A stretch of 64,000 nt of DNA. It comes from Styela clava (taxonomy: Eukaryota). How positions within the stretch are numbered: position 1 is the stretch's first letter; each line of letters starts with the position of its first letter. The position numbers were made by a program, and so were the translations under genes. The DNA lies in assembly GCF_964204865.1 (NCBI RefSeq), contig NC_135254.1:5208001-5272000 (forward strand). Reading direction: 5' to 3'. Below the pieces are notes generated by a model. It made no database searches. It worked only from the letters and a program-made list of their open reading frames with translations, and was not told the DNA's origin. Positions 22,116 to 41,726 of this stretch are shown piece by piece.

Positions 22116-24365
22116 TTTAGTCTTTCGGCCTATTGTACCGGTACCGGTATCTACCGTACCTGTTTACAGGTTTACCAGTAATCTATTTTGACTACCGGTA
22201 CCGTATTTTTCTATTACGGTACTTGATAGGATTTCTCTCCATTATATTGGAAGAGATTCCCATGCTTGCTTCAACTCACTGATTCATTTGAAATTGAACA
22301 TTTCAGCATTTATTTTCAGTATTCCATAAACTTCTTTTTCTAAAACTACCCTACTCATTGTAATATTTTGTAATTGTGGATAAATTCTCCTGGATAGGAC
22401 ACGATACCGGTATCGAGTTAGTTCCATTTTATTCTTATCTAAGATTAATGGATTATGCCAAATAATCTCCGAGTACCTGTAGTCCGGTACCGGTACCACC
22501 TTCGTTGGTTATTCAATTAACAGCGGTTGCCATGGCCAACGGCCGGCCATTTTGTACTATCTTTTATTTAACACTGTAACAGTTTCGCATATTAGTCACA
22601 TAACAATCAAAAACTATCTAAAAGGAATCTCTCTATCAATGTATGTTTTTGCTAGCAAACATCTGCTACTGGGTATTAGCGTACCGTACCCAAATTATCA
22701 CAAAAAATCAGCACACAATAAGGTAGAAATTTTAAAAGGTAAGATTTCCCCAACGGCCGGCAACCAACTTGCCTAGAGTTAAACAAGTTCATGAACGCCA
22801 TCTTGTGCCACATTTGGAAAACTCGAAACAATGGTGTCTTATGGGAAATTTTCGTTGTGTTGTTGTACCGAATCGAATAAGTCCGCTGCTATAAGGGCTA
22901 GAATGAAACTGAAGGGTGGATTTTAAACTTTAAGATATATGCTATCTAAATATTTAGCGCATTGAAGAATAAAAAACTATCGAGTGCGTTAAATTTGACC
23001 ACAAACACAGCGTAGAAACATTTTTGGTCATTTTTTCAAAGATTTTATAGTGATACGCCAATTTGAGGCTGTAAAATGACTCCGCAACAATCCTACAATG
23101 TCATTTGTTCTTCTAGCGCAGCTTAGAGCTGAGCGGTAGGGCATTATAGGGCTTGACAGACGAAAAATGTTAACCAGAAAATAGAAACGGCCATTGAAGC
23201 AAAGTTGGGTCGGCCGGTAATTTCGACGAATAAATACAACTTTTCATCTGTGACGTCATAAGGAACGCCATTGTCAAATGATTAATTATGACGATGGGAA
23301 TGGCCAATTTACTTCGAAAGCAACTCGGAACCGGTATACTTGTCTTCAAAGACGATTTAATGTACTATAAATGTAATTTGGCGAACATGAAAGGATATAA
23401 GCATGTACGGCTAAGATTCTACTTGAAAACGCGACCTTCCAAATTTTTCTACCTAAAATATTAGTGAAAATAATAGGTATGTTTCAACAATTGTGTTGGA
23501 ACTTCTCATAAGGCGCCGTGTTAAATTGCCGAGAACAAGTTTCCCCCGAGCATCGACTTTCTTATTTACTTCGTAACATTGGCCAATCAGCAAGATGCAA
23601 AATCTGACGCACGAATGGGTCCTTTCGATTGCACTAAGTCAGAGTATAGGGATTTCAATGGTGATAAAGTAAGTCAAAACTTCATACTAATGCTCAAAAC
23701 TCATCATTTTACTAAGCGTTCTTAACAGTATGTCAGGAAGGTTTTGTTATTAAACACTGCATAAGCATCGAGTAACTATCGCCCGTCTATTATTATAATT
23801 AGTCAATCGGAAAACGTTTCTATTATTCTGCCCACTGAATTAAAAGAGTTCGTCAAATTATCGAGCATTTCCGTGTAATTGTAAACATTTTTCTTCCGAA
23901 GCGACTGCAGACAGGGCACAATTACTTATTTGATTACATCGTTCTGCGTTTCCCTTGTCCCAGTGCAGTCAGTCATAGAAATCCAATCATATCATACTAA
24001 TTGTTATTGTCATACCTACAAAGGCAGATTTCTATTAGTTTTAAGGAGTGTGAAAAGACGTAAACGGTAGAAAAACAATTTTAAACATTCTTCTATACTC
24101 GAAGTTCTACCAAGTACATGCAGCTTTAAATTAGCTTCAGTGAGTAAATATGTTCCTTTCCGGTATTTCAGAATGAAGATTACAGCTATATTCGTAGTTC
24201 TACTGTTCAAAGGTATGTCATTTCTTTTTGAGAATTTTCTTGAAAAAAAGAACATTCACGAAGATGTAAAGAACATTCGGCGCCCCTTTAGTATACAATC
24301 TCAATAAAATAGAGAGAGAAATTTTCTATTTCGTCAACCAGAAAAAGCATTGCAATTATTAAAAG

Positions 24366-24577: not shown

Positions 24578-25070
24578 CCCGAAATTGTTCAACGTGATAT
24601 CAATCGCATACGAAAGTGACAATAATTCTGGTGCCACTAGGGCAGGAGTTCTCAACCTGGGTTCGCGAACCCCAGGAATCTACGAGAAGATTTCCAGGGG
24701 TACTTGGATGACAGTCGAGTTTTTGTATGTTGCTGTTTTTTAATATCCTTTATTACTACCATGGGAAATGCGTATACATTGAAACTAGACGCCAATTGAA
24801 ACGTAGATTTTCCCTGGTCTTGCGTTGTTGTGATTATGACGCAACAATGTGAAATTCAAGGCTTTGCGTACAAACTGTGAAATCTTTAAAGACAGCGTGC
24901 TGCGAGCATTGGATAAGTGATTATGATTATTGTAACTCGGGAGAGATTTTAAGAATTCATTAGTTTGGCAGACGACAAGGGCCATAATACCAACAAGACG
25001 ATTTAATTTAGTTACATATGGTCAATAAATTGGTGTTGCAACAAATTGTTATTTAATATATCAGTATATC

Positions 25071-26319
25071 TAGGGTTACCATATTTTGGGGACTTCAAAT
25101 CGGGACGCCTCGAAAGACAACGACCCATTAGCTGTGATTTTGTAACTTCACATTTTCCGATTTTACTACATAGGCCTATATTCCTACATTTAAAGCTGTC
25201 TCGGCTGTCTTTATTGACCATATTGTTATCGAAACTTCATGCGCTTATTTTCTGTCCAAATATCGGGTTCAGTTCAAAAAGTAGGAAGGAATTGACGTTA
25301 ACGATACCGGTACAAATAATTCGAATTTAGAATAATTAGTATTGGTTTTACATGCGATACGTCTGCCATCAATGGGAATCAGCGGGAAACGAACGCATTC
25401 ACCTCTTGCCTTTCCCTCTAATTTTTTGTGTGGCCCGGCTGGATGTCTGAAGATGGTCATATAGCCCAGGGCTACTCAACTATTTTTATCGAAGGTCCGT
25501 AAACGAAACTTCAAAATTATTTGGGTCCGGTCTTTCCAGAAATGATATTTCGGCATCCTTAAACGAGCACTTCCTCGACCGACTAATGATTAGTAGCAAA
25601 TTAAAATTGTTCATTATGGTGTTATAGTTCTTTTCGTATATATTCAAAACTATGAAAGTCATTTTATAATAGGAAATTCAAAAAGTGGGGCTAATGATCC
25701 AAAATAAATAATTAGGTGCGGTCCAAATCCAATACTCGAAAGATCCGGATTCGGACCGCGGTCCGCCAGTTGAGTAGCCCTGATATAGCCTACCGAAAAA
25801 AAAAGTTTCACATCACTGTTATAGTGTTTAATGTGTTATCTATGCCATACTAGAGCATCGCTGATACCTCCATACCATTGACTACTGCGTTTAATAAGTA
25901 TGAAACACGTAAAAATAACAAATGTCTTATTTTAGAAACAGCAAATTGCGCAGGATTCGTTGGTTCAACCACCACAGTTGAAAGGACTTATCATCAACCA
26001 GAATACTGCAACAAATCGTCGGATGGAAACTTGATGCCATTTGTTGAAGTCAGTTATGTTTCAGATGGTAGAAAAACGAATTATTCCGGAAATAATATGG
26101 GATTCCGAATTCGTTATAACTTTACCAGATGCATACAAGGTAAAATACTTTTACTTCAGTAAGAAGGCTAGCGTTGCGCTACACAGAAACAACAGTAACA
26201 AGAACATGTTTGTGTATTATGCTGGAAAAGCGGGACTTTTGGCTGACTTATCGGGACGGCGGGACAAAACGCTGAAAAGCGGGACTGTCCCGCCTAAAGC
26301 GGGACGTATGGTAAGCCTG
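25071..26319. mobile_element. Non-autonomous hAT (Blackjack-type ends, CGGGAC repeats) carrying a host exon copy
   Basis: Ends tagggttaccata / tatggtaagcctg; TSD agtatatc at 25063-25070 and 26320-26327. Confidence 0.88.
25467..25782. mobile_element. hAT MITE, innermost member of the nest
   Basis: Perfect TIR cagggctactcaact / agttgagtagccctg; TSD atatagcc at 25459-25466 and 25783-25790. Confidence 0.93.
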
Positions 26320-27169
26320 AGTATATCACAACTTTGTTCGGTATCAGATTATTGGGGGTTCGCGTTGATTGTTTGGTGACTCAAGGGATACTTGACAGAA
26401 AAAAGGTTGAGAACCCCTGCACTAGGGTATGTCTTTCATTTCATAAAGACATTCCCATAGAATTTAGTTTTTAACTCTAACTAAAACCACTAAGATCACA
26501 CAGCCGTTGAGATCAAATACCGTAAAGCTAGGGGAGACCACTAGATTCCAAGAACTAGAATTATGATGATGCATTTTGAGACTGTACATATAAATTGAAG
26601 TAGTTCGAAATTCTTAGTTGCGCTAAAGTTCCTCAATACTTTTCAAAGCGATAGTCATAATATATGAATGAGTGTCCATAAAGTCGCTTCACAATTTCAA
26701 TATATCTTAACCAGGTTTGTTGTTTTTGATAAATGTAAGTATTTTTACTTCAATTAATACATCTGTGTGGGCCAAAACAATATATGGTATGATTGATAAA
26801 TTCCCGTTGCAATTAAAAAAAAAAACTTATATAATACAGCGCAATTATGCGAAATGCATTTTATCAGGTTTCATCAGAAGCACAATATCGCAATGCAATG
26901 GTAGTGAAATGATTATTTCTAACGGAACCGGTCACATTCAATCTCCGAATTACAAAAACGAATATGGGAAAAATGCAAGCTGCACATGAAAGTTTGTCCC
27001 TGAAGAAAATGACAAATTTATGCAACTGAATCTTACAGTTGAATACCAACGACAATATTTTATAAAATATTTGTTCTTTCCGGTGTGTCCTGGATCATAC
27101 ATACTACCAGTAAATCACGGTAATTCAGGTTTTTGCAATTCATTTTGTCGGGGGCATCGCAGTGAAGGC

Positions 27170-27450
27170 AGTGGCGTATTTACGTAAAATGACGCCCCTG
27201 GCGCAAAGCTCAAGAATTCACCACTTGATTATTAAATGTCAATTGTTGTTGAACGCGGACAAACGACTGATGTTGTTGAATTGAGATACTTGTGCATTAT
27301 TATTTATGCAAAAATACAAGTTTCAATTTTTTCCCAAGTTTAAATTATTTATTAAAACATTCTACGGTCGAAAATTTTGCCTTTTTGCGCCTCTATTCAA
27401 GCGGCGCACATGGCACAAGCCATGGCTTCCACACCCTAGATACGCCACTA
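27170..27450. mobile_element. MITE interrupting the CUB exon
   Basis: Ends cagtggcgtattta / tagatacgccacta; no matching TSD, suggesting an adjacent deletion. Confidence 0.7.
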
Positions 27451-27788
27451 GATACTGATTTATAATCATATTTCTTTTCACGATTTAAAGCATTTTTAAG
27501 TTCTACTGTCTTAAAATATGTCGATGCATCTGAAAACAAATAACTGACTAACTAATCTTATACCCAACATGAAGTGTTGGCCGGACGATAGCTCATGGTT
27601 CGCCATATGATTAATGTGTGGTATCAGCTCTTCTCTCCCAGTGATAAATAAGCAAATCTAGCCGTATTTTATATAAATAAACATCCCCAGCAAAATGGCC
27701 AATAAAACCAGGTCTAACTGTCAAAGAAGTGTTCTCAAGCATTGTGTATATTCCCTGTAATTGACCTAGTTATATAACGCCTTTTGTG

Positions 27789-28037
27789 CAGGAGTGTGCA
27801 ACAGGCGGCCCGCGGCCACAATCCGGTCCGCCAAGCCATTAAGTACGGCCCTTGTCAACACTCAGATTTTCCTTATTAGGCATAAAATCCTAATCTGGCA
27901 GTATCACATAGATAAAAATACATAATGGTTTTTTTGCTCTTGTCGTTGCTTTAAATCTTTCGCCGTTGTGCCCGGTGCTTTTTTTGCTGTAAGACTGACC
28001 GATATTTACATTCTCTTCTCTTGCGTTTCCCGCTAAA
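27789..28037. mobile_element. Truncated hAT MITE left arm fused to the middle of the CUB C-terminal exon
   Basis: Left end caggagtgtgcaacaggcggcccgcggcc; no right TIR; sequence switches to exon at ~28038. Confidence 0.6.
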
Positions 28038-28317
28038 AATACTGCAACGAATCGTCTGATGGAAATTTGATGCCATATGTTGAAGTCAGTTATGTTTCAG
28101 ATGGTAGAAAAACGAATTATTCCGGAAATAATATGGGATTCCGAATTCGTTATAACTTTACCAGATGCATACAAGGTAAAATACTTTTACGAGATAATAA
28201 GTATGACTTACATTTTGGACATTTAAATGTTTTCTGACTATCCACACAAGAACCTTTTGAAATATTAAGAATTTGGTCTTGGTGAGGATAGGAATACGTC
28301 GCTACAAAAATGTAGAC

Positions 28318-28628
28318 CGGTGGTTTCAAACATTTTATGGCTTGTGTTCCCCTTTCAGAGGCTTTCAGCACTCGTGGCCCTACTGTTTGTCTCTGCAGGA
28401 GTAATTATAAGGTTATTGGTTGATTCCTAATTCCATTAGGTTTAATCAAAAAATGCTCAACAATATGAAAAATCCCTGTGGAATAACCTTGCCCAGCTAT
28501 GAAACTGGGTAAAACGGGAGTTTTCTTGTAAAGGGAAAAGTAAAATCAGTTTTCCGACTAGCATTGTGCGTCCCTTCAATTGTTTTGTGACCCCCTGGGG
28601 ATCACGGTCACCCGGTTGGGAACCGCTG
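28318..28628. mobile_element. hAT MITE (CAGTGGTT-type; relatives ~30340-30610, 41098-41332, ~47274-47456, ~50019-50279, ~55358-55507)
   Basis: Ends cggtggtttcaaac / gttgggaaccgctg; TSD atgtagac at 28310-28317 and 28629-28636. Confidence 0.85.
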
Positions 28629-28845
28629 ATGTAGACGACAGCCGTAAAATTTTTTAATATTTAACGCTTACAACCTGAATTCAATTTTTATATGGTTTAG
28701 CGTCATCGTTAATTACAGATTCAAGAGAAACTACATCCGCATCAACGAATATACAGACGACAGGTAGGCATGCAACCAGGGTCGCATCATGGCTTGTAGT
28801 GGTCCTAAGCACGTGAGACTTTGGTGCCCTATATATAAAAAATAA

Positions 28846-29075
28846 AGTACTCCCGAAGTATGTGAACCAAGATGGCGGACACCGGAACATAGTATGTGTA
28901 CCAGGTTAGGCCCTAATTTTATTCCAATTTTCCTTATTTTAGTTCTATTACAAGTTCAGGGACTGGTCAAGAGACTCCCGTAGTATTAGTACCTGAAATT
29001 ATGGCCTCACCCTAACCTGGTACACATGCTACGTTACGGTGTCCGCCATCTTGGTTCACATACTTCGGGAGTACC
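28846..29075. mobile_element. TTAGGG-MITE copy (same family as 6649-6884)
   Basis: Long TIRs gtactcccgaagtatgtgaaccaagatggcggacacc / ggtgtccgccatcttggttcacatacttcgggagtac. Confidence 0.88.
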
Positions 29076-29440
29076 TAAAAAAATAATATTAATAGGAATG
29101 TGCCTAGTTTTCCGTGTTATCTGAAATTTAATTAATAAGTTCCCGTATATATTCATTACTGATTGAAGGCCAAATTAATTAAAAATAATTATTTGAATGT
29201 TATTTTTTGAAAATAGTTCTCATACATACGGACTTTTGTAGAGAGGTAAGATAATACTTGAAGAAAAACGAGCAAAATTTATTTCAGCTACACTAATCTT
29301 AAAATCCGAATCGTCTGACCAATCATTTTTTTAAAGTTTTTCAAGTACTGAGACATATTTCAAACTCTTCTTCAAATACTTCTTTTGTTGCCGCCTTTTG
29401 CTTGGTACCTACCCCTAAGCACGTGCTTATTTTGCCTTAC

Positions 29441-29640
29441 CTGACGCTTTTTAACAGTTTTTGAGGTTACGGTGAATTGCTATTCAAACGTTTCATGACT
29501 AACGCTTTTTAACAGTATAGAAGTCATGGTGAAATGCTAATCAAACGTTCAATCACTGAAGCTTTTTAACAGTATGGAAGTTACGGTGAAATGCTATTTA
29601 AACTTTTAACGTCTGACGTTTTTTAACAGTATTTAACAGT
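29441..29640. repeat. ~57-bp tandem repeat, about 3.5 copies
   Basis: Repeating ct(g/a)acgctttttaacagt...gttacggtgaaatgctattcaaacgttt. Confidence 0.8.
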
Positions 29641-32600
29641 AAAAATCGGTGGCACTTTGGCACCGAGATGCACTCTCAGCGTCATAAAACTACTTTGGTA
29701 CGTATTCTCACTTTCTTAACGTGATCCAATTACATAGTGAACTGGCACCAATTGTGGTTAGGTATGCATCCAATCTCATACCGATATTTTCATAGAATTC
29801 AGTAATCATATGATGAGTGCGAGGAAACTTTCCGCAACAGTTCGGCCTGGACAAAAAATATTGCCAATGATATCACACTGTCATCGCAGATCGCATATCA
29901 AAGTGACATAATAATTTCGTATGGCTGATAAGCTATACAAAATCCAAGTTACACTCGCGTCCTCGGAAGACATAATGACAAGTTATTTGATTTAAAACTA
30001 TTATTTGGAAACAACTATAAACTGACGAATAACATGAAATACTATCACAAATAGGCAATGTTTACAACCACGCTTGAATATCTGTCAGTCACGTCATGAA
30101 TTTCAATTGTTGTTCACATCAGTTTTTTTTTTCGGAAGCATGGACTTGACGTGCGCGATTAGGATTTATATCATGAGTTTTTGCGATTCAATTCTGCCAA
30201 TTTTTGCGACAAGAGTACTTACTACAGCGTACGGAACGATCCAAACTTGTGTCCAATAAATTCAAAGCATGACTTCCTGCCGTTTGTTAACTGAAGGCTA
30301 CTATTAAACAGTCAATCGTGGCAGAATTCCTGTTTAGTCCAGCGGTTCTCAAACTTTTTAAGCCACGCCGCCTTTCTAGATTTTGGCAAATCTAGCGTCT
30401 CACCTCTAAAATAACTAGCTAACAATAAGCTGCAACTTACAGATAGTAAGGCGAAAGTATGTTTTTTCAAAAAAGATGGAACTTGAATATATAAAATAAA
30501 GAAATGTAACTATTCAAAATAGAGCGGGCAAGATGAAATATAACAAATGTTTTTATTTTTAATTAGCACCACACTCCCTCAAAAACGGTCTATACCCCAT
30601 TCTATTCGAGAAGGAACATTTACAGATGTAGACTGAAAACTAACAATAAATTATGATTACACCTGTCGCCTGTTTGTATTAAAAAGAAAAAGATGACCAG
30701 TGGTTACTTTATTTTTGTTGTATATTATTTACAATCTGCAGGGTGCACACAACGGTAGCGGAACAACAGGAACCGACACCAATCAACATTACAACTACGT
30801 CAGTTGGTGGGAGAAGTCCGTCGACATCTGCCTCGCCGAACTCGGCTTACGAAGAAATCGGCAACCAAAAATACGAGAACTTGCCGACACCAAATGAAGA
30901 GGATCCGTATTTAACGCCGTTTGAAATTGAGAACGCTGGGTATGAAGTCCCAATATCAAGGCGTTAATACTAACATATACTAAAACTAAGAAACCATTTA
31001 CTCTATATTTCCCAAAACCTGACAGTAGGCTGACACCATACGAAAAAAGGGCGAAAAGTGATAAGAACCTAAGCCCAGGCCGCTTCCACTTTCCAAAAAA
31101 TTTGACGATGATTCTGGTCAGAGACCCCTGTTAATAAATGTCATGCCTGTAAACTGGCAAACGCAACTCAGTAGCGGAGGGGTGTCCATTTCGGTCCGTT
31201 TTAATTTCTTAGAGCTGTCTCATTGGTAGTATGAAGCAAGGATGTGTAAATTTATATCTTACAAATCGGGAAGTTTAGGGTGGTATATTAGGCCCAATAG
31301 AATTACAAACACAACTGTTGTTACAAGACAGTACATGAAACATCACAAACTACGGTGAAAGGTTTTGTTGAAATGCTTTTCATTGAGTTTATTTTCTTTA
31401 ATTCTTACTACATTCGGCTTTAATTTTATAAATAAAAGAAGAAAACTTAAATGTTGATACACGAACTGAAGTATTTTACCAACATCTGCAAGGTTCACAT
31501 TTTTGCTGAAATAGTCATATTCTATCAAAGACTCTACTAGCACCCTTGAATGACGCATGCCATATAGACACAAGAACCGCACATTCACCTTTTATACTTC
31601 GCCCATTTAAATTATATGGTCTCACCACTCAAAGGTGCTGTATTTACGCCTAAATTTCATCATTATGTACCTGTACTTGGTGTTGTGTTGTCTCTATTTA
31701 TATATATTGTCATGTCTTACAAACTCCCCTGTATAAACAGTTTTGCATGCTCCACCCTTACCACTCTCGCCCCACCTTGCACAACTGCCTGTATAAGGGA
31801 CTATATTTAACGTATTCAATCTAACGTTTTTTGTTTTATATTTGTCAAAAGGGGTGCATGCCGCACATTTGTGTTTTAGTCCAGTAGGTCTTGTGCATGC
31901 ATCCCGATGATTGTCAATTTATTTATTTCTCACTATTACGAGACGAATAAACATACATAATACAAACAAATTCAGTTCATGGCAAACGTCACTGTCAGAC
32001 TACGTCATATTTAAAATTATTACGATATAAGATTATAAATTAGTTAATAGACTTCGGCCATGGATACATTCAGTTTTAAAAAATTGTATTAGTTGCATGG
32101 TTCTTACTTTAGTTTGTGTTTTATTATCTGAAAATGTTTTTTTTTTTCTGCCTGATTTCATACAATGTCTGTTTGTTTTGCCGTATGCTTTCACGGTTCT
32201 TGGACGGGCGCCTACGTTTTTTTCCCTATCTGAGTTGTGCTTGCCTTCCAGATAACTCTGCAGTTTCCATGTCCGTTTGTTGTTGTTTTGTTTTATGCAA
32301 AAGCGATCAAATTGGAATTGATTGATAATGCGAATTTGGCGCGTTTTGATGTCTGTAAACACAAAGCCTGGTGCGATTTCCGTTCAAAGTGTTCAGGTGC
32401 GCGCTGTTCACCTACCGAAAAAAATGGAAAAACAAAAAGGAACTTTCGTCTTCTTCAGAAAGTTCCATAATCTTATCTTATTCATTCCCCATATAAACAC
32501 TGATAAGTCCAGCCATGATGCAGTTATGAAACGTCCACAACAACGTCATGTCGGACACGTGACTTCGCTGGGTGCCGAAAACCAGCTAATTGTGATGTCA

Positions 32601-33150: not shown

Positions 33151-36100
33151 AAGGATAATAAGGAAAATTGGAATAAAATTAGGGTCTAACTCTAACACAT
33201 ACTTGGTACACATACTTAGGGAGTACCGAATGGTTGTATCGTTACCACTGATTCTTCTATCTATTTTCATTTATTATTCATATGTTATGTATTTTCTGGT
33301 ATGACGAAAAAATAAATTCCCTCTTTCGCACTACCTGACATCAAATCGAGTTATCTATTAATGTCATTGATATTTTACATTATGTTCCATTCGGAACTTA
33401 ATTTAATATTGTGTAGACTTTTGCGAAAATAAAATCTTTCTCGATAGTTTCCGTTTCATATTTCATTAATGTGTATTTTCTTTTCCTGATCCCCCATATC
33501 CGTGGCATCTATATGTTCAAGCAGATGACAGCACTTTTGAACCCACGTACATTTGCACCCGTATATCCGCGGGTTCAATCTACATGCGGGTGCTAAAATC
33601 CATGGGTTAGGGTTAGTATGGGTTCAAATATCCGTAAAAAAAATTCCATAAATAGTATGCAGGTGCAATTGTTGTGGGTTCAAATGTAATGGAAATGTTT
33701 AAGCAATATGGTATTTATTTGCTGGATAGCGTTACTGCCACGGTTGTGTTAATAAGTCTTCGGTTTTCTGTGACAGCCTTTCATTAATCATTTTGTGTTA
33801 ATCTGTTCATTATTTACATCAGGGGTCGGCAACCCCTGGCACGCGTGCTATTTGTGGCACGCGAGGGAATAACTCATGGCCCGCCAAACGATTTAAGGCA
33901 GATTCGCGACAAACTTTCTACGTTTGAACTAAAAATAACAATTCGACAAATACATTGGAAAAAACATTCAATATTTAACTGCAATCGACGAGAGGCTGAG
34001 ATCTGTACCTGAAATCGGCGTAGATAAGCATGTGCGATGTAGTCGACCCCCCTTTCTCCCTGAATCACATATTATTTCACGACAACGATAATAATTACTT
34101 TCTTTTTGCCCAGAATTGTAAATTCGCTGAAAGTTATTATACGTTCATCGGCGGCGAGATCTTAAGTTCCAACAAAGGAGTGAATCGTCAACACAAATTT
34201 TTTGATTGAGAAGTGGCAATATAAAATACCAATAATAAAATTAAAACTTGTGGGAGGCCCGCGACAGATTAAAAACACTACTCTAAACATTGTAAATAGC
34301 AAAGATGAGTTTCGACACATGGCACACATAAGTTTCGGTGGCGTTGGGAACCATACCGTTACTAAAATCGAAACACAGTCAATTGTGCGCGGACTTATCC
34401 ATTAATTTAAAATGCCGTCGAAAAAATTTTCGTGTTAATATTATACAAGGTTGGAAACGCGGCTTTTCCCAAGTCGTGGAGATATATAAGATAATTAATC
34501 AAACTTAATTAAGTATATTCAATCAATTTTTATTGTAATAAGATAAATTTCACTCCGTGAGATTTTATAGCAAACTTGGGGATTTTTCCAACGGTTTTAT
34601 CTTAAAAATAATCTGAGTGGCATCATTGCGATAGAGCGGAGTCGGTGTTGCAGCTACAGCTCAGATTTGTCGAGTTTGCAAAATACGGATCAAAACTAGA
34701 TGTAATAAAGTTTACCACACATTTCCATGTCCGCGGTCAGAGACCGAAGACTTATCGATCGAAAGTTAGGGGATCCCCCAAAACAGCGCTCTAACTCCAT
34801 AGTGACACTTTGTGTCCGATCACTAATTAATTAACAACTCGCTAATTATACGACATAATTCATCCAAAATCAATAGGCTTCTGGTACGATATATGATGAA
34901 TGCACATGCAAAATTTGGAGCAGATTCAATCTCGCTTTCGTGAGATATCGCGTACATCTAACAGACAGACAAACAGACAAATACCTAGCAACATACTTAC
35001 CGATAGGTAATAAGGAAAATCGGAATAAAATTAGGGTCTAACTCTAACACATACTTAGGGAGTACCGAAAGGTTGTATCGTTACCACTGATTCATCTATC
35101 TATTTTCATTTATTATCCATATGTTATGTGTTTTCTGGTATGACGAAAAAATAAATTCCCTCTTTCCCACTACCTGACCATCAAATCGAGTTATCTATCA
35201 ATGTCATTGATATTTTACATTATATTCCATTCGGAACTTAATTTAATATTGTGAAGACTTTTGCGAAAATAAAATCTTTCTCAATAGTTTCCGTTTCATA
35301 TTTCATTAATGTGTATTTTCTTTTCCTGATCCCCCATATCCGTGGCATCTATATGTTCAAGCAGGTGACAGAACTTTTGAACCCACGTACATTCGCACCC
35401 GTATATCCGCGGGTTCAATCTAGATGCGGGTGCTAAAATCCATGGGTTAGGGTTAGTATGGGTTCAAATATCCGTAAATAAATTCCATGAATAGTATGCA
35501 GGTGCAATTGTTGTGGGTTCAAATGTAATGGAAATGTTTAAGCAATATGGTATTTATTTGCTGGATAGCGTTACTGCCATGGTTGTGTTAGTAGGTCTTC
35601 GGTTTTCTGTGACAGCCTTTCATTAATCATTTTGTGTTAATCTGTTCATTATTTACATCAGGGGTCGGCAACCCCTGGCACGAGTGCTATTTGTGGCACG
35701 CGAGAGAATAACTCATGGCCCGCCAAACGATTTAAGGCAGATTTGCGACAAACTTTCTACGTTTGAACTAAAAATAACAATTCGACAAATACATTGGAAA
35801 AAACATTCAATATTTAACTGCAATCGACGAGAGGCCGAGATCTGTACCTGAATTCGGCGTAGATAAGCATGTGCGGTGCAGTCGACCCCCCTTTCTCCCT
35901 GAATCACATATTATTTCACGACAACGATAATAATTACTTTCTTTTTGCCCAGAATTGTAAATTCACTGAAAGGTATTATACGTTCATCGGCGGCGAGATC
36001 TTAAGTTCCAACAAAGGAGTGAATCGTCAACACAAATTTTTTGATTGAGAAGCGGCAATATAAAATACTAATAATAAAAATAAAACTTGTGGGAGGCCCG

Positions 36101-36575
36101 CGACAGATTAAAAACACTACTCTAAACATTGTAAATAGCAAAGATGAGTTTCGACACATGGCACACATAAGTTTCGGTGGCGTTGGGAACCATACCGTTA
36201 CTAAAATCGAAACACAGTCAATTGTGCGCGGACTTATCCATTAATTTAAATTGCCGTCGAAAAAAATTTCGTGTTAATATTATACAAGGTTGAAAACGCG
36301 GCTTTTCCCAAGTTGTGGTGATATATATGATAATTAATCAAACTTAATTAAGTATATTCAATCAATTTTTATTGTAATAAGATAAATTTCACTCCGTGAG
36401 ATTTTATAGCAAACTTGGGGATTTTACCAACGGTTTCATCTTAAAAATAATCTGAGTGGCATCATTGCGATAGAGCGGAGTCAGTGTTGCAGTTACAGCT
36501 CAGATTTGTCGAATTTGCAAAATACGGATCAAAACTAGATGTAATAAAGTGTACCACACATTTTCATGTCCGCGG
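32889..36575. repeat. Tandem segmental duplication, two ~1.84-kb copies (32889-34733 and 34734-36575)
   Basis: Near-identical sequence at offset 1839-1845; duplicated ORFs 33874/35713 and 34202/36041; cgg microhomology at the junction. Confidence 0.95.
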
Positions 36576-39310: not shown

Positions 39311-40882
39311 CTAAGCTCTATTCTGTAATGTTTTCTGGAAATTTTTCTTCTTTCGTCTTTTCTGTGGACTCTGTGGAGCGTCCGTGAACAACGAATCATC
39401 TGCAATTTTATCCCCACGACGTAGTTTGCCTTTCAGATTCGGCTCTGCGTATGAAACGCCCGAAGCAGCTCTACGTCCTGTCCTCCGAGGAGCGGAATTT
39501 TCTTTATTTATATCGTTGTAATTGTTCAGTTTGATTCTTTTATTTTCATCAAGTATGAAACTATCACTCGAACAGCTTAGGAAATCATAAGCAGTTTTGT
39601 TCATCAAATCTTTCTTAGTTCCAAACTTGCTAGTTCCTTTGCTCTGCTTAGCTTTGGGTTTAATGGGATTAAGGTTACTAAAAGGTTCGTTGACGTTTTG
39701 ATCTTCCGAAGTTGTGTGTTCAGGATTGCGTGGTGTTCTAACACTGTCGCTATTTTCTCCATCAGAGTTATCAGAGAGATTTAAACAGTTTGGGCTGGTA
39801 GTTTCTGAAATACTTATTTCTGCATTTTTTACAGATGCTACATTTTCACTTCTAACATTCCCATTCATGACATCACAATCATTGTTAGCATCGTCTATTT
39901 CATCACAATCATCATTCAAGCTTTCATTAACCAATGAATGAGAACTACCAGAAATGTTTAAATTCAAATTCATACAACTTGGACGACCATGGTTAACACT
40001 GAAGTTGAAGTCAGAGTCTGCAGAAATATTTAAATCTAATGCATGCAAATCTTCGCAATCATTTAAAATTTCTTGACCATCAGATTGTGAGAACTCTTCT
40101 TCCTCTGCCAAAAGAGACATTTGGTTATTATCAGTCTTTTCAGATGACATAAATTTAGGGCTGTGTTGGTCTTCATAGTCATTCCTATTTACTGATAGCA
40201 CGCCATCACCATTTTCTAAAGCCTTATCTTCCACTATGGGTTGTTTTCTCATAACTCTCCTAGGCCTCTGTGTTATACTGCTACTCAAAAATCTCTCCTT
40301 CACCTTCGAAGTTGAAATTTCATCCTTTTGAGAGTCACGATTTTCCTTGTAGATAGAGTTTGTGGCTCCGCTTCGTTCGGTGATGTTATTTAAAGTAAGA
40401 TTGGCATCGTTTGAAAGATTCGGGATTTGAAAATTGAGAGAAAAATCTGAATTGTTTCCGTTTTGTACTGAGTCAATCGCACTCATGACATTGTCGAATT
40501 GTTCTCGTAAAAGGAATGCGTATTTCAAGATATTCTTTTTAGCTTCAACTTCCTTTTTGAGCTTAATATTTTTCTCCGTTACAGATTTTAGTTTCTGTTG
40601 GTTAGCAGCGTGTTCCACCATCATTGAAATCTGTTTGTCTCTGTACATGTGATTATCATTTTCCAATTGAGAGTTATTTCGACGAATTTTCGCAAGTTTT
40701 GTGACACAGATTTTATTTTTATGCTCCAATGCACACAATTGTTGTGAAACAAAGGACTTATTTTGACCCGGATCTTGATGTGCTCTTCTGTTGCCTTTTA
40801 CGTTTCGAAGATGGTCAATGCTACGATCAAAGGAAGTATTTTCCAATCTTGGCCAGTCTACTCTACTTGTATTTGCTTCCAT
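39311..40882 (-). CDS. SGO1: Shugoshin-family centromeric cohesion protector, single exon
   Basis: 523-aa ORF with an N-terminal coiled coil and the C-terminal basic SGO motif RRAASGVSYAEPNLKGKLRRGD. Confidence 0.85.
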   Translation of the reverse strand: MEANTSRVDWPRLENTSFDRSIDHLRNVKGNRRAHQDPGQNKSFVSQQLCALEHKNKICVTKLAKIRRNNSQLENDNHMYRDKQISMMVEHAANQQKLKSVTEKNIKLKKEVEAKKNILKYAFLLREQFDNVMSAIDSVQNGNNSDFSLNFQIPNLSNDANLTLNNITERSGATNSIYKENRDSQKDEISTSKVKERFLSSSITQRPRRVMRKQPIVEDKALENGDGVLSVNRNDYEDQHSPKFMSSEKTDNNQMSLLAEEEEFSQSDGQEILNDCEDLHALDLNISADSDFNFSVNHGRPSCMNLNLNISGSSHSLVNESLNDDCDEIDDANNDCDVMNGNVRSENVASVKNAEISISETTSPNCLNLSDNSDGENSDSVRTPRNPEHTTSEDQNVNEPFSNLNPIKPKAKQSKGTSKFGTKKDLMNKTAYDFLSCSSDSFILDENKRIKLNNYNDINKENSAPRRTGRRAASGVSYAEPNLKGKLRRGDKIADDSLFTDAPQSPQKRRKKKNFQKTLQNRA

Positions 40883-41726
40883 TTTAGGTCTTTGCTACAA
40901 ATCCAAAACTTATCGGGGTGTACATTCACTAGTGATGTAATAATTAGATCTGCGACAAATAATAAAACAAATATTGAATGAGAAATAACATTTGAAAAAT
41001 TCAATAGAGTGCTAAATTTGACTCGATAAGTATGAACCACTCTGTAAATTACCATGCTATGTGAACATTGTATTAAAATAAAACAAAAATGCTAGACCAG
41101 TGGTTCTCAAACTTGCGCCCCCTTTTCAGAAGATCACATGTAACAAATATTTTTAATTAGCTTCGCGGCCCATCAAAAATTGTGGGGCTCCCGAAGTATG
41201 CGAACCAAGATGGCGGACATCGGAATGTAATATGTGTACCATTCATTTTTATTTTTAATTAGCTTCACGCCCCCACAAAAAAATTGTTTATCCCCCTCTA
41301 GTGGGGCACACCCCACCGCCTGAGCACCACTGCATTAGACAATCACACAAAATGATTCGAAAGCAAAGTCATTAATAAAGGCGTTGATGAAACAAAAAGT
41401 GAATCTGGTAAATCTAGACTCGTAGTGAGATCCAAAAATACTTGAACTTCGACCTTAATAAAATATTTGAAGAACCCAGATGCAAGCAAAATTTGATAGA
41501 AACTACTGTTCCACTACTTAAGAGGCGTATCTGAAACAATATGTCAGCATTTCTTTTTTGCAATTTCATATACCGGTACCTTAAATATTGTGTTATTTCA
41601 TATAAAGGGCAGCAATTCTCATCTTAAATTGTTCAATAACAGCATTTCTAATATGCAAATTCTCTCGACTTTATTCATTATTCCAAATATAATTTTCAAG
41701 CATTCCTGCGTTTGGTTGGAAAAATC

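Follow-up and report, generated by a model that had tools for sequence, protein, structure and literature searches.

A complete host exon inside a hAT-type MITE in intron 1 of a broken CUB-like receptor gene, probably copied there by break repair

How does a complete exon of a gene come to lie inside a transposable element in the first intron of that same gene, and does it do anything there? The question is raised by the window analyzed here, a 64,000-nucleotide stretch of Styela clava DNA, in which a first-pass annotation described a hAT element carrying an in-phase copy of its host gene's own downstream exon. We consider it likely, with a probability of about 0.8, that a 751-bp copy was pasted into the element by break repair from a template ∼2 kb away, and that the extra exon is inert in what is now a broken gene. 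The features on which this reading is based are collected in Table 1.

Table 1. Features of the host gene and of the nested elements, in window coordinates.
Feature	Position	Strand	Description
Exon 1 of host gene, coding part	24173..24212	+	40 bp, phase 1; short hydrophobic signal-like peptide; both paralogues have a 40-bp exon with GT donor
Outer MITE	24643..26419		∼520 bp once its guest is subtracted; 16-bp TIR; 8-bp TSD CACTAGGG
Inner hAT-type MITE with insert	25071..26319		∼500-bp family; TSD AGTATATC
Templated insert	25403..26153	+	751 bp; CT fits either side, so ends may shift by 2 bp; element loses no sequence
Old intron-2 MITE, 3' end, in insert	25403..25818	+	Missing at the native site; interrupted by the young MITE
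Young nested MITE inside insert	25467..25782		Perfect 15-bp TIR; TSD ATATAGCC
Exon 3, complete copy	25936..26139	+	Open AG..GT unit of 204 bp in phase 1-1; both splice sites present
Exon 2	26868..27119	+	N-terminal part of CUB-like domain; in-frame TGA at 26987-26989
Old MITE, 5' part, native intron 2	27789..28036	+	Cut by deletion; 40 other matches at 70-86%; aligned with 11 copies
Native deletion junction	28036..28038		Counterpart of 25422-26001 gone, with the last part of the MITE, the last part of intron 2 and its acceptor, and the opening 66 bp of exon 3
Native exon 3 remnant	28038..28175	+	3' 138 bp kept, with donor site
Region expected to hold the paralogues' transmembrane exon 4	28176..30741	+	Homologue not found; intron remnants align at both sides
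Last coding exon	30742..30967	+	Tyrosine-motif cytoplasmic tail; phase-2 acceptor

The carrier is the middle layer of a three-level nest of MITEs, in which the outer MITE holds the inner element and a young MITE lies within the insert of the latter. The outer MITE has 39 other matches at 88–93% among the best 40 scored, and the inner element is absent from all seven of the outer-MITE copies that were fetched. The boundaries given to the inner element in the first-pass annotation held up, since it ends in 13-bp TIRs (11/13 complementary) and its 8-bp flanks are identical. Members of its family, fetched at 26 loci matching the arms, were mostly 430–670 bp long; both ends were present at 23 loci, where the 8-bp TSD was perfect in 17, matched at 7/8 positions in four, and matched at six and at four positions in one locus each. 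Six of the 17 perfect TSDs represent one insertion inside a larger repeat: at L017–L020 (C18), L022 (C4) and L023 (C2), six related MITEs of ∼664 bp have one common TSD and 3-kb flanks that are 91–99.7% alike, and these copies are, as judged by sequence, a single insertion carried by a larger repeated unit.

Longer elements of 1.9–2.6 kb have the same TIR and 8-bp TSDs, and are 79–91% identical to the last 40–100 bp of the right arm. Their decayed open reading frame matches Dimer_Tnp_hAT just under the cut-off (E 9e-4), and a more distant, intact relative of 625 amino acids passes the cut-off (E 1e-7); a 510-amino-acid relative with the same left TIR gave no domain match. The inner element therefore combines an 8-bp TSD, short TIRs and ends common to hAT-transposase elements, and the label hAT-type MITE appears justified, with candidate relatives only in the place of an autonomous partner. 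Two loci with a hAT dimerisation domain that match the left arm (L068 and L076) were rejected as linked elements, one being a separate insertion and the other having no second end within 8.3 kb.

At the insert site, the arms of the inner element were unbroken in all 19 of the family copies examined, and in reads from other family copies the joint 25402>26154 skips the 751 bases. The insert consists, in order, of the end of an old MITE, the end of intron 2, exon 3 in full, and 14 bp from intron 3. Intron and exon together account for ∼335 bp, the remainder being other MITE DNA, and 427 bp are left when the young MITE and its TSD are removed. The first-pass annotation was thus right that the exon had been copied whole, but the captured segment is far larger than it had supposed. 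It had also read 25936–26139 correctly as a sense exon standing between exon 1, which ends in phase 1, and exon 2, which starts in phase 1, and had correctly stated that the transposon holds the only complete version in the window: this is the sole full-length exon 3 of the host gene.

The source of the insert was evident from both of its sides. On the right, 26002–26154 and 28038–28190 share 149 of 153 bases, a within-window match of E 8e-71, with differences at 26013, 26021, 26030 and 26041, in agreement with the match and the four early mismatches annotated between ∼26001–26155 and 28038–28189. The native copy lies 2036 bp downstream of the copy in the insert, and the exon copy is 97% identical to it, versus 77–79% to the exons of two paralogues. 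On the left, 17 of the first 19 bases of the insert (25403–25421) are identical to native 28018–28036, after which the insert runs on as the absent 3' part of the old MITE (11 family copies aligned; best matches 83–89%), whose decayed TIR ends at 25818 and whose flanks there agree with the native left flank at 5/8 positions. Because the insert is continuous with an old MITE specific to intron 2, the donor is the intron-2/exon-3 region of the host gene itself, ∼2 kb away, in its state before a deletion; that the copy keeps DNA since lost from the donor fixes this beyond doubt. The deletion measures 580 bp; should the young MITE have arrived only after the copying, the figure falls to 256 bp. 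Loss of the 5' part of the native exon had been recognized in the first-pass annotation, but a truncated MITE is not its cause, the MITE having been already resident and itself cut by the deletion.

To look for further copies, the genome was searched with 25850–26200, and the best 40 of 434 candidates were scored. These comprised the query locus itself, the native exon, the two paralogue exons, and 36 matches to the right arm of the element only. The insert-specific segment 25786–26010 gave two candidates, which were the locus itself and a paralogue exon at 74%. No second loaded or moved copy was found among the top-scored genome candidates, to which scoring was confined, and 'single copy' is therefore a lower bound. 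Nothing shows that a transposase was the captor, or that the loaded element has ever moved. Comparison with the paralogues assigns three of the four exon differences to change in the copy. Over the 45 codons shared by copy and native exon there are two synonymous and two non-synonymous differences, which are too few for dN/dS.

Receptors of the host family are CUB-like, span the membrane once and carry several tyrosine motifs in their tails. Each of the two paralogues, which lie 14–24 kb upstream of the window, has its open reading frame divided among five coding exons, in the order 40-bp leader, 249-bp exon, 210-bp exon, transmembrane exon and tyrosine-motif tail, and the last coding exon in the window has 64–65% amino-acid identity to both. 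Exon 2 looks like the beginning of a CUB domain, aligning with positions 1–41 of the Pfam profile, with E 0.006 for the portion of the window exon ahead of its stop codon and E 1.5e-4, just over the cut-off, for paralogue exon 2; exon 3 gave no match to Pfam CUB in either of two tries. Paralogues, for which the first-pass annotation had proposed a search, exist, and exon 2 has 32 matches genome-wide, 22 of them within ∼190 kb of C6 and some with stops. Family loci were recorded at G000:C5:5179400-5187000 and 5191900-5196900 (L032, L033), C6:20.2-20.4 Mb and C17:3.08 Mb. The receptors look like a birth-and-death family, possibly with a role in immunity.

Some weaker traces of the family were also seen. 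Upstream of the window, on the minus strand, G000:C5:5198563-5198647 matches the tail exon (E 0.007) and G000:C5:5199218-5199337 matches the transmembrane exon (E 0.13), which may suggest a further, more distant member. At 29758–30000 of the window, 43–46 bp resemble intron 1 of the host family (83% to both paralogues) and are followed by a very weak, stop-containing stretch like exon 2 (E 0.4), perhaps a decayed older internal duplication. Elsewhere, the window contains a 57-bp unit repeated in tandem three to four times (29441–29634), a tandem duplication of ∼1.6 kb or more that is 96% identical (33153–34737 and 35005–36575), and, on the minus strand, a 527-codon open frame at 39311–40894 in which the Shugoshin C-terminal motif scores above the Pfam cut-off (PF07557, E 2.4e-6).

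The host gene is a pseudogene with three lesions, a condition that the first-pass annotation had missed together with the in-frame stop. The TGA in exon 2 stands where both paralogues have TGG, native exon 3 is truncated, lacking its acceptor and first 66 bp, and the transmembrane exon is missing. Alignment of the paralogues' transmembrane exon to 28176–30741 scored 35.5, compared with a mean of 35.4 and a maximum of 44.5 for shuffled sequence, and the positive control, exon 5, scored 308. Hydrophobic stretches in 28176–30742 were considered as a transmembrane substitute and rejected, as the best reached 2.45 versus 3.47 for the paralogue helix and did not align to the paralogue exon. A reading through exon 1, the copy and exon 2 runs for 120 codons before it meets the exon-2 stop, and phase-1 donors are out of frame with the phase-2 last exon, such that no predicted splice path would give an intact receptor in this haplotype. 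The dN/dS of exon 2 is ∼0.2 against the paralogues (63 codons), which suggests that selection acted on the gene through most of its past and that the damage is probably recent.

An internal break without loss, a single near donor in the same orientation, tiny end matches and the lack of poly(A) fit template-switching repair within a resident element. The joins have 2 bp of end matching on the left and 1 bp on the right, and there is no poly(A) tail; because chance joins equal these matches in 8% of 20,000 simulations, they are weak evidence alone. In the course of events that we favor, the old MITE would already have been resident in intron 2, and the outer MITE, then the inner MITE, would have entered intron 1. 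To repair a break near position ∼334 of the inner MITE, a strand would have invaded intron 2, either of the same chromatid before its deletion or of the homologous chromosome, and been extended across exon 3, the repair joins using the 1–2 bp of matching with zero loss of element sequence. A later deletion would have removed, from the native site, the acceptor and one-third of exon 3 at its 5' side. Divergence between the copy and the native sequence is 6/172 (95% CI 1.3–7.4%), and that between the element and its closest family copy is 9/464 (CI 0.9–3.7%), and as these intervals overlap, the events cannot be ordered by them. That the element came first and the capture later is what we infer rather than observe, because an empty element at the same site was not seen in another haplotype or species; the allele search covered DNA runs dominated by repeat reads, and the sole raw-read run had ∼1x depth on unique DNA.

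The arrangement might instead be a misassembly, or two independent elements could flank an ordinary tandem duplication of the exon, as the first-pass annotation had itself envisaged. The junctions between insert and element were bridged by none of the contigs listed, and the best DNA run, X1, is possibly the assembly's own sample. However, the arms join base-for-base into one family member with matching TSDs, the two copies differ at six sites, and contigs without a single difference cover the insert-specific DNA 25759–26071 in the middle of the insert (runs X1 and X2), the stop codon (run X1), and the native deletion junction (run X1; contig 27931–28107). Both models were rejected on these grounds, and we regard them as scarcely credible. 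Delivery of an already loaded element from a paralogous gene, which had been offered alongside capture from a template 2 kb away, would draw on the two close paralogues and on the ∼30 exon-2 relatives genome-wide, but these paralogue exons are far less similar to the copy than the native exon is, and the insert overlaps on its left the old MITE unique to this intron 2 and on its right the native intron 3. Unless an unassembled, near-identical paralogue exists, such gene-specific intron and MITE sequence refutes delivery, which we hold to be extremely improbable; what stands is local capture, in place, in one hAT-type element.

An origin in transposition itself would lead to the same product if a transposase had excised the inner element and if repair of the gap, templated by the sister or the homologous chromosome, had strayed through exon 3 (abortive gap repair). 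In favor of this, the family is recent enough to have been mobile, as its many perfect TSDs indicate (17 of 23 two-ended copies), transposase-bearing relatives with the same TIR exist, and a template on the homologous chromosome would also account for a copy holding DNA absent from this haplotype. Nevertheless, we think this unlikely, since larger deletions and terminal breakpoints are expected after excision (PMC8277862), whereas here the break is internal and the element has lost nothing. A different challenge to the reading of local break repair concerns its inert product: the captured exon could be spliced and functional, with the order 1-3-2 replacing 1-2-3. The CUB-like domain so formed would be circularly permuted, and the loss of native exon 3 would be accounted for. 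The copy is open, in phase and has both splice sites intact, the native deletion falls wholly within the duplicated interval, and the dN/dS of exon 2 speaks of long selection. Against this, the 1-3-2 reading meets the stop in this haplotype, the transmembrane exon is gone, the phase-1 donors cannot enter the last exon in frame, and two of the three changes on the copy side alter residues, so that a functional exon is very doubtful. Contigs from three runs presumed to be RNA (X6, X8 and X9; 98% likeness) contained MITE parts only, with neither exons nor splice joints, and are uninformative on expression.

Circular permutation of protein domains can arise as permutation by duplication. The locus has the form of such an event, in that a C-terminal exon was copied upstream and the original was lost to leave the order 1-3-2, but it differs in its stop codon and missing membrane exon, and a permuted product is hypothetical. 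It is a long shot that a stop-free haplotype or an ancestor made a circularly permuted receptor after a transposon-hosted repair duplication and loss of the original; if it did, this would be permutation by duplication caught in the act, and only if the 1-3-2 order were spliced and translated in a stop-free haplotype would the locus matter more. A literature search for circular permutation with exon duplication, a CUB domain or a transposon returned no such case.

Among known captures of host DNA, multicopy elements that have moved, such as the rice Pack-MULEs, frog hAT-N8_XT and fly Ssk-FB4 (as presented in PMC8277862), share with this locus a host exon inside TIR ends. Unlike them, the element here yielded no second loaded copy among the scored candidates, and hence no set of loaded copies at several sites with different TSDs, and its donor is local rather than on another chromosome. 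The single-copy Pack-TIRs of animals are closer. Tan et al. (2021; PMC8277862) describe 370 of these, for which hAT elements are the commonest carrier (208 cases); 56.9% lie within 15 kb of the donor, 13.4% capture exonic DNA, with one human case copied into its own gene, breakpoints are internal with a median microhomology of 2 bp, and the authors argue for transposition-independent gap filling. They put the frequency of capture at about 2 per 10,000 TIR elements. Capture by animal hATs is therefore well documented (PMC8277862; PMC2671141), contrary to the first-pass annotation, which had called it much less so. As in a single-copy Pack-TIR, both TIR ends and a TSD surround the host DNA, which falls within the 100–5000 bp allowed between two parts of one two-ended TIR element. 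The locus does not pass the detection filters of that study (which ask for a donor 80–120% as long as the insert and free of TEs for 100 bp around it), and its pipeline would drop this case because the surviving donor is 172 bp long and starts inside the old MITE. We met no account in PMC8277862 of a whole coding exon copied in phase to an upstream place within its own gene; the supplements of that study might list closer cases.

The element works like a single-copy Pack-TIR, and it also fits the repair-mediated duplications of Pace, Sen, Batzer and Feschotte (2009; PMC2671141), who reported 824 proximal ones inside human elements. Those likewise consist of an element interrupted by a single-copy insert, with a donor <5 kb away, short end matches and no poly(A). 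Two of their defining features are found here, as the insert of 751 bp exceeds 50 bp and is absent from family copies (19/19 unbroken), and its one donor, at 2036 bp, falls between 50 bp and 5 kb away, with no other close match among the scored candidates. A third feature, junctions of repair type (microhomology, short duplication, filler or deletion) that lack a poly(A/T) tail, may have its counterpart in the tail-less 2-bp and 1-bp matches, at the 8% level of chance given above. The insert is larger than their proximal maximum of 619 bp, although it measures 427 bp without the nested MITE and its TSD. Two whole exons were duplicated in their set, and one of these, exon 7 of ACSBG2, entered an intron of its own gene in antisense (PMC2671141), whereas the copy described here is sense and in phase, lies in an invertebrate, and has a donor that has since been partly deleted. 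As it stands, the locus is a neat invertebrate case of what is probably repair-mediated duplication into a MITE, and shows one route to the damage or reshuffling of a gene in a receptor family with fast turnover.
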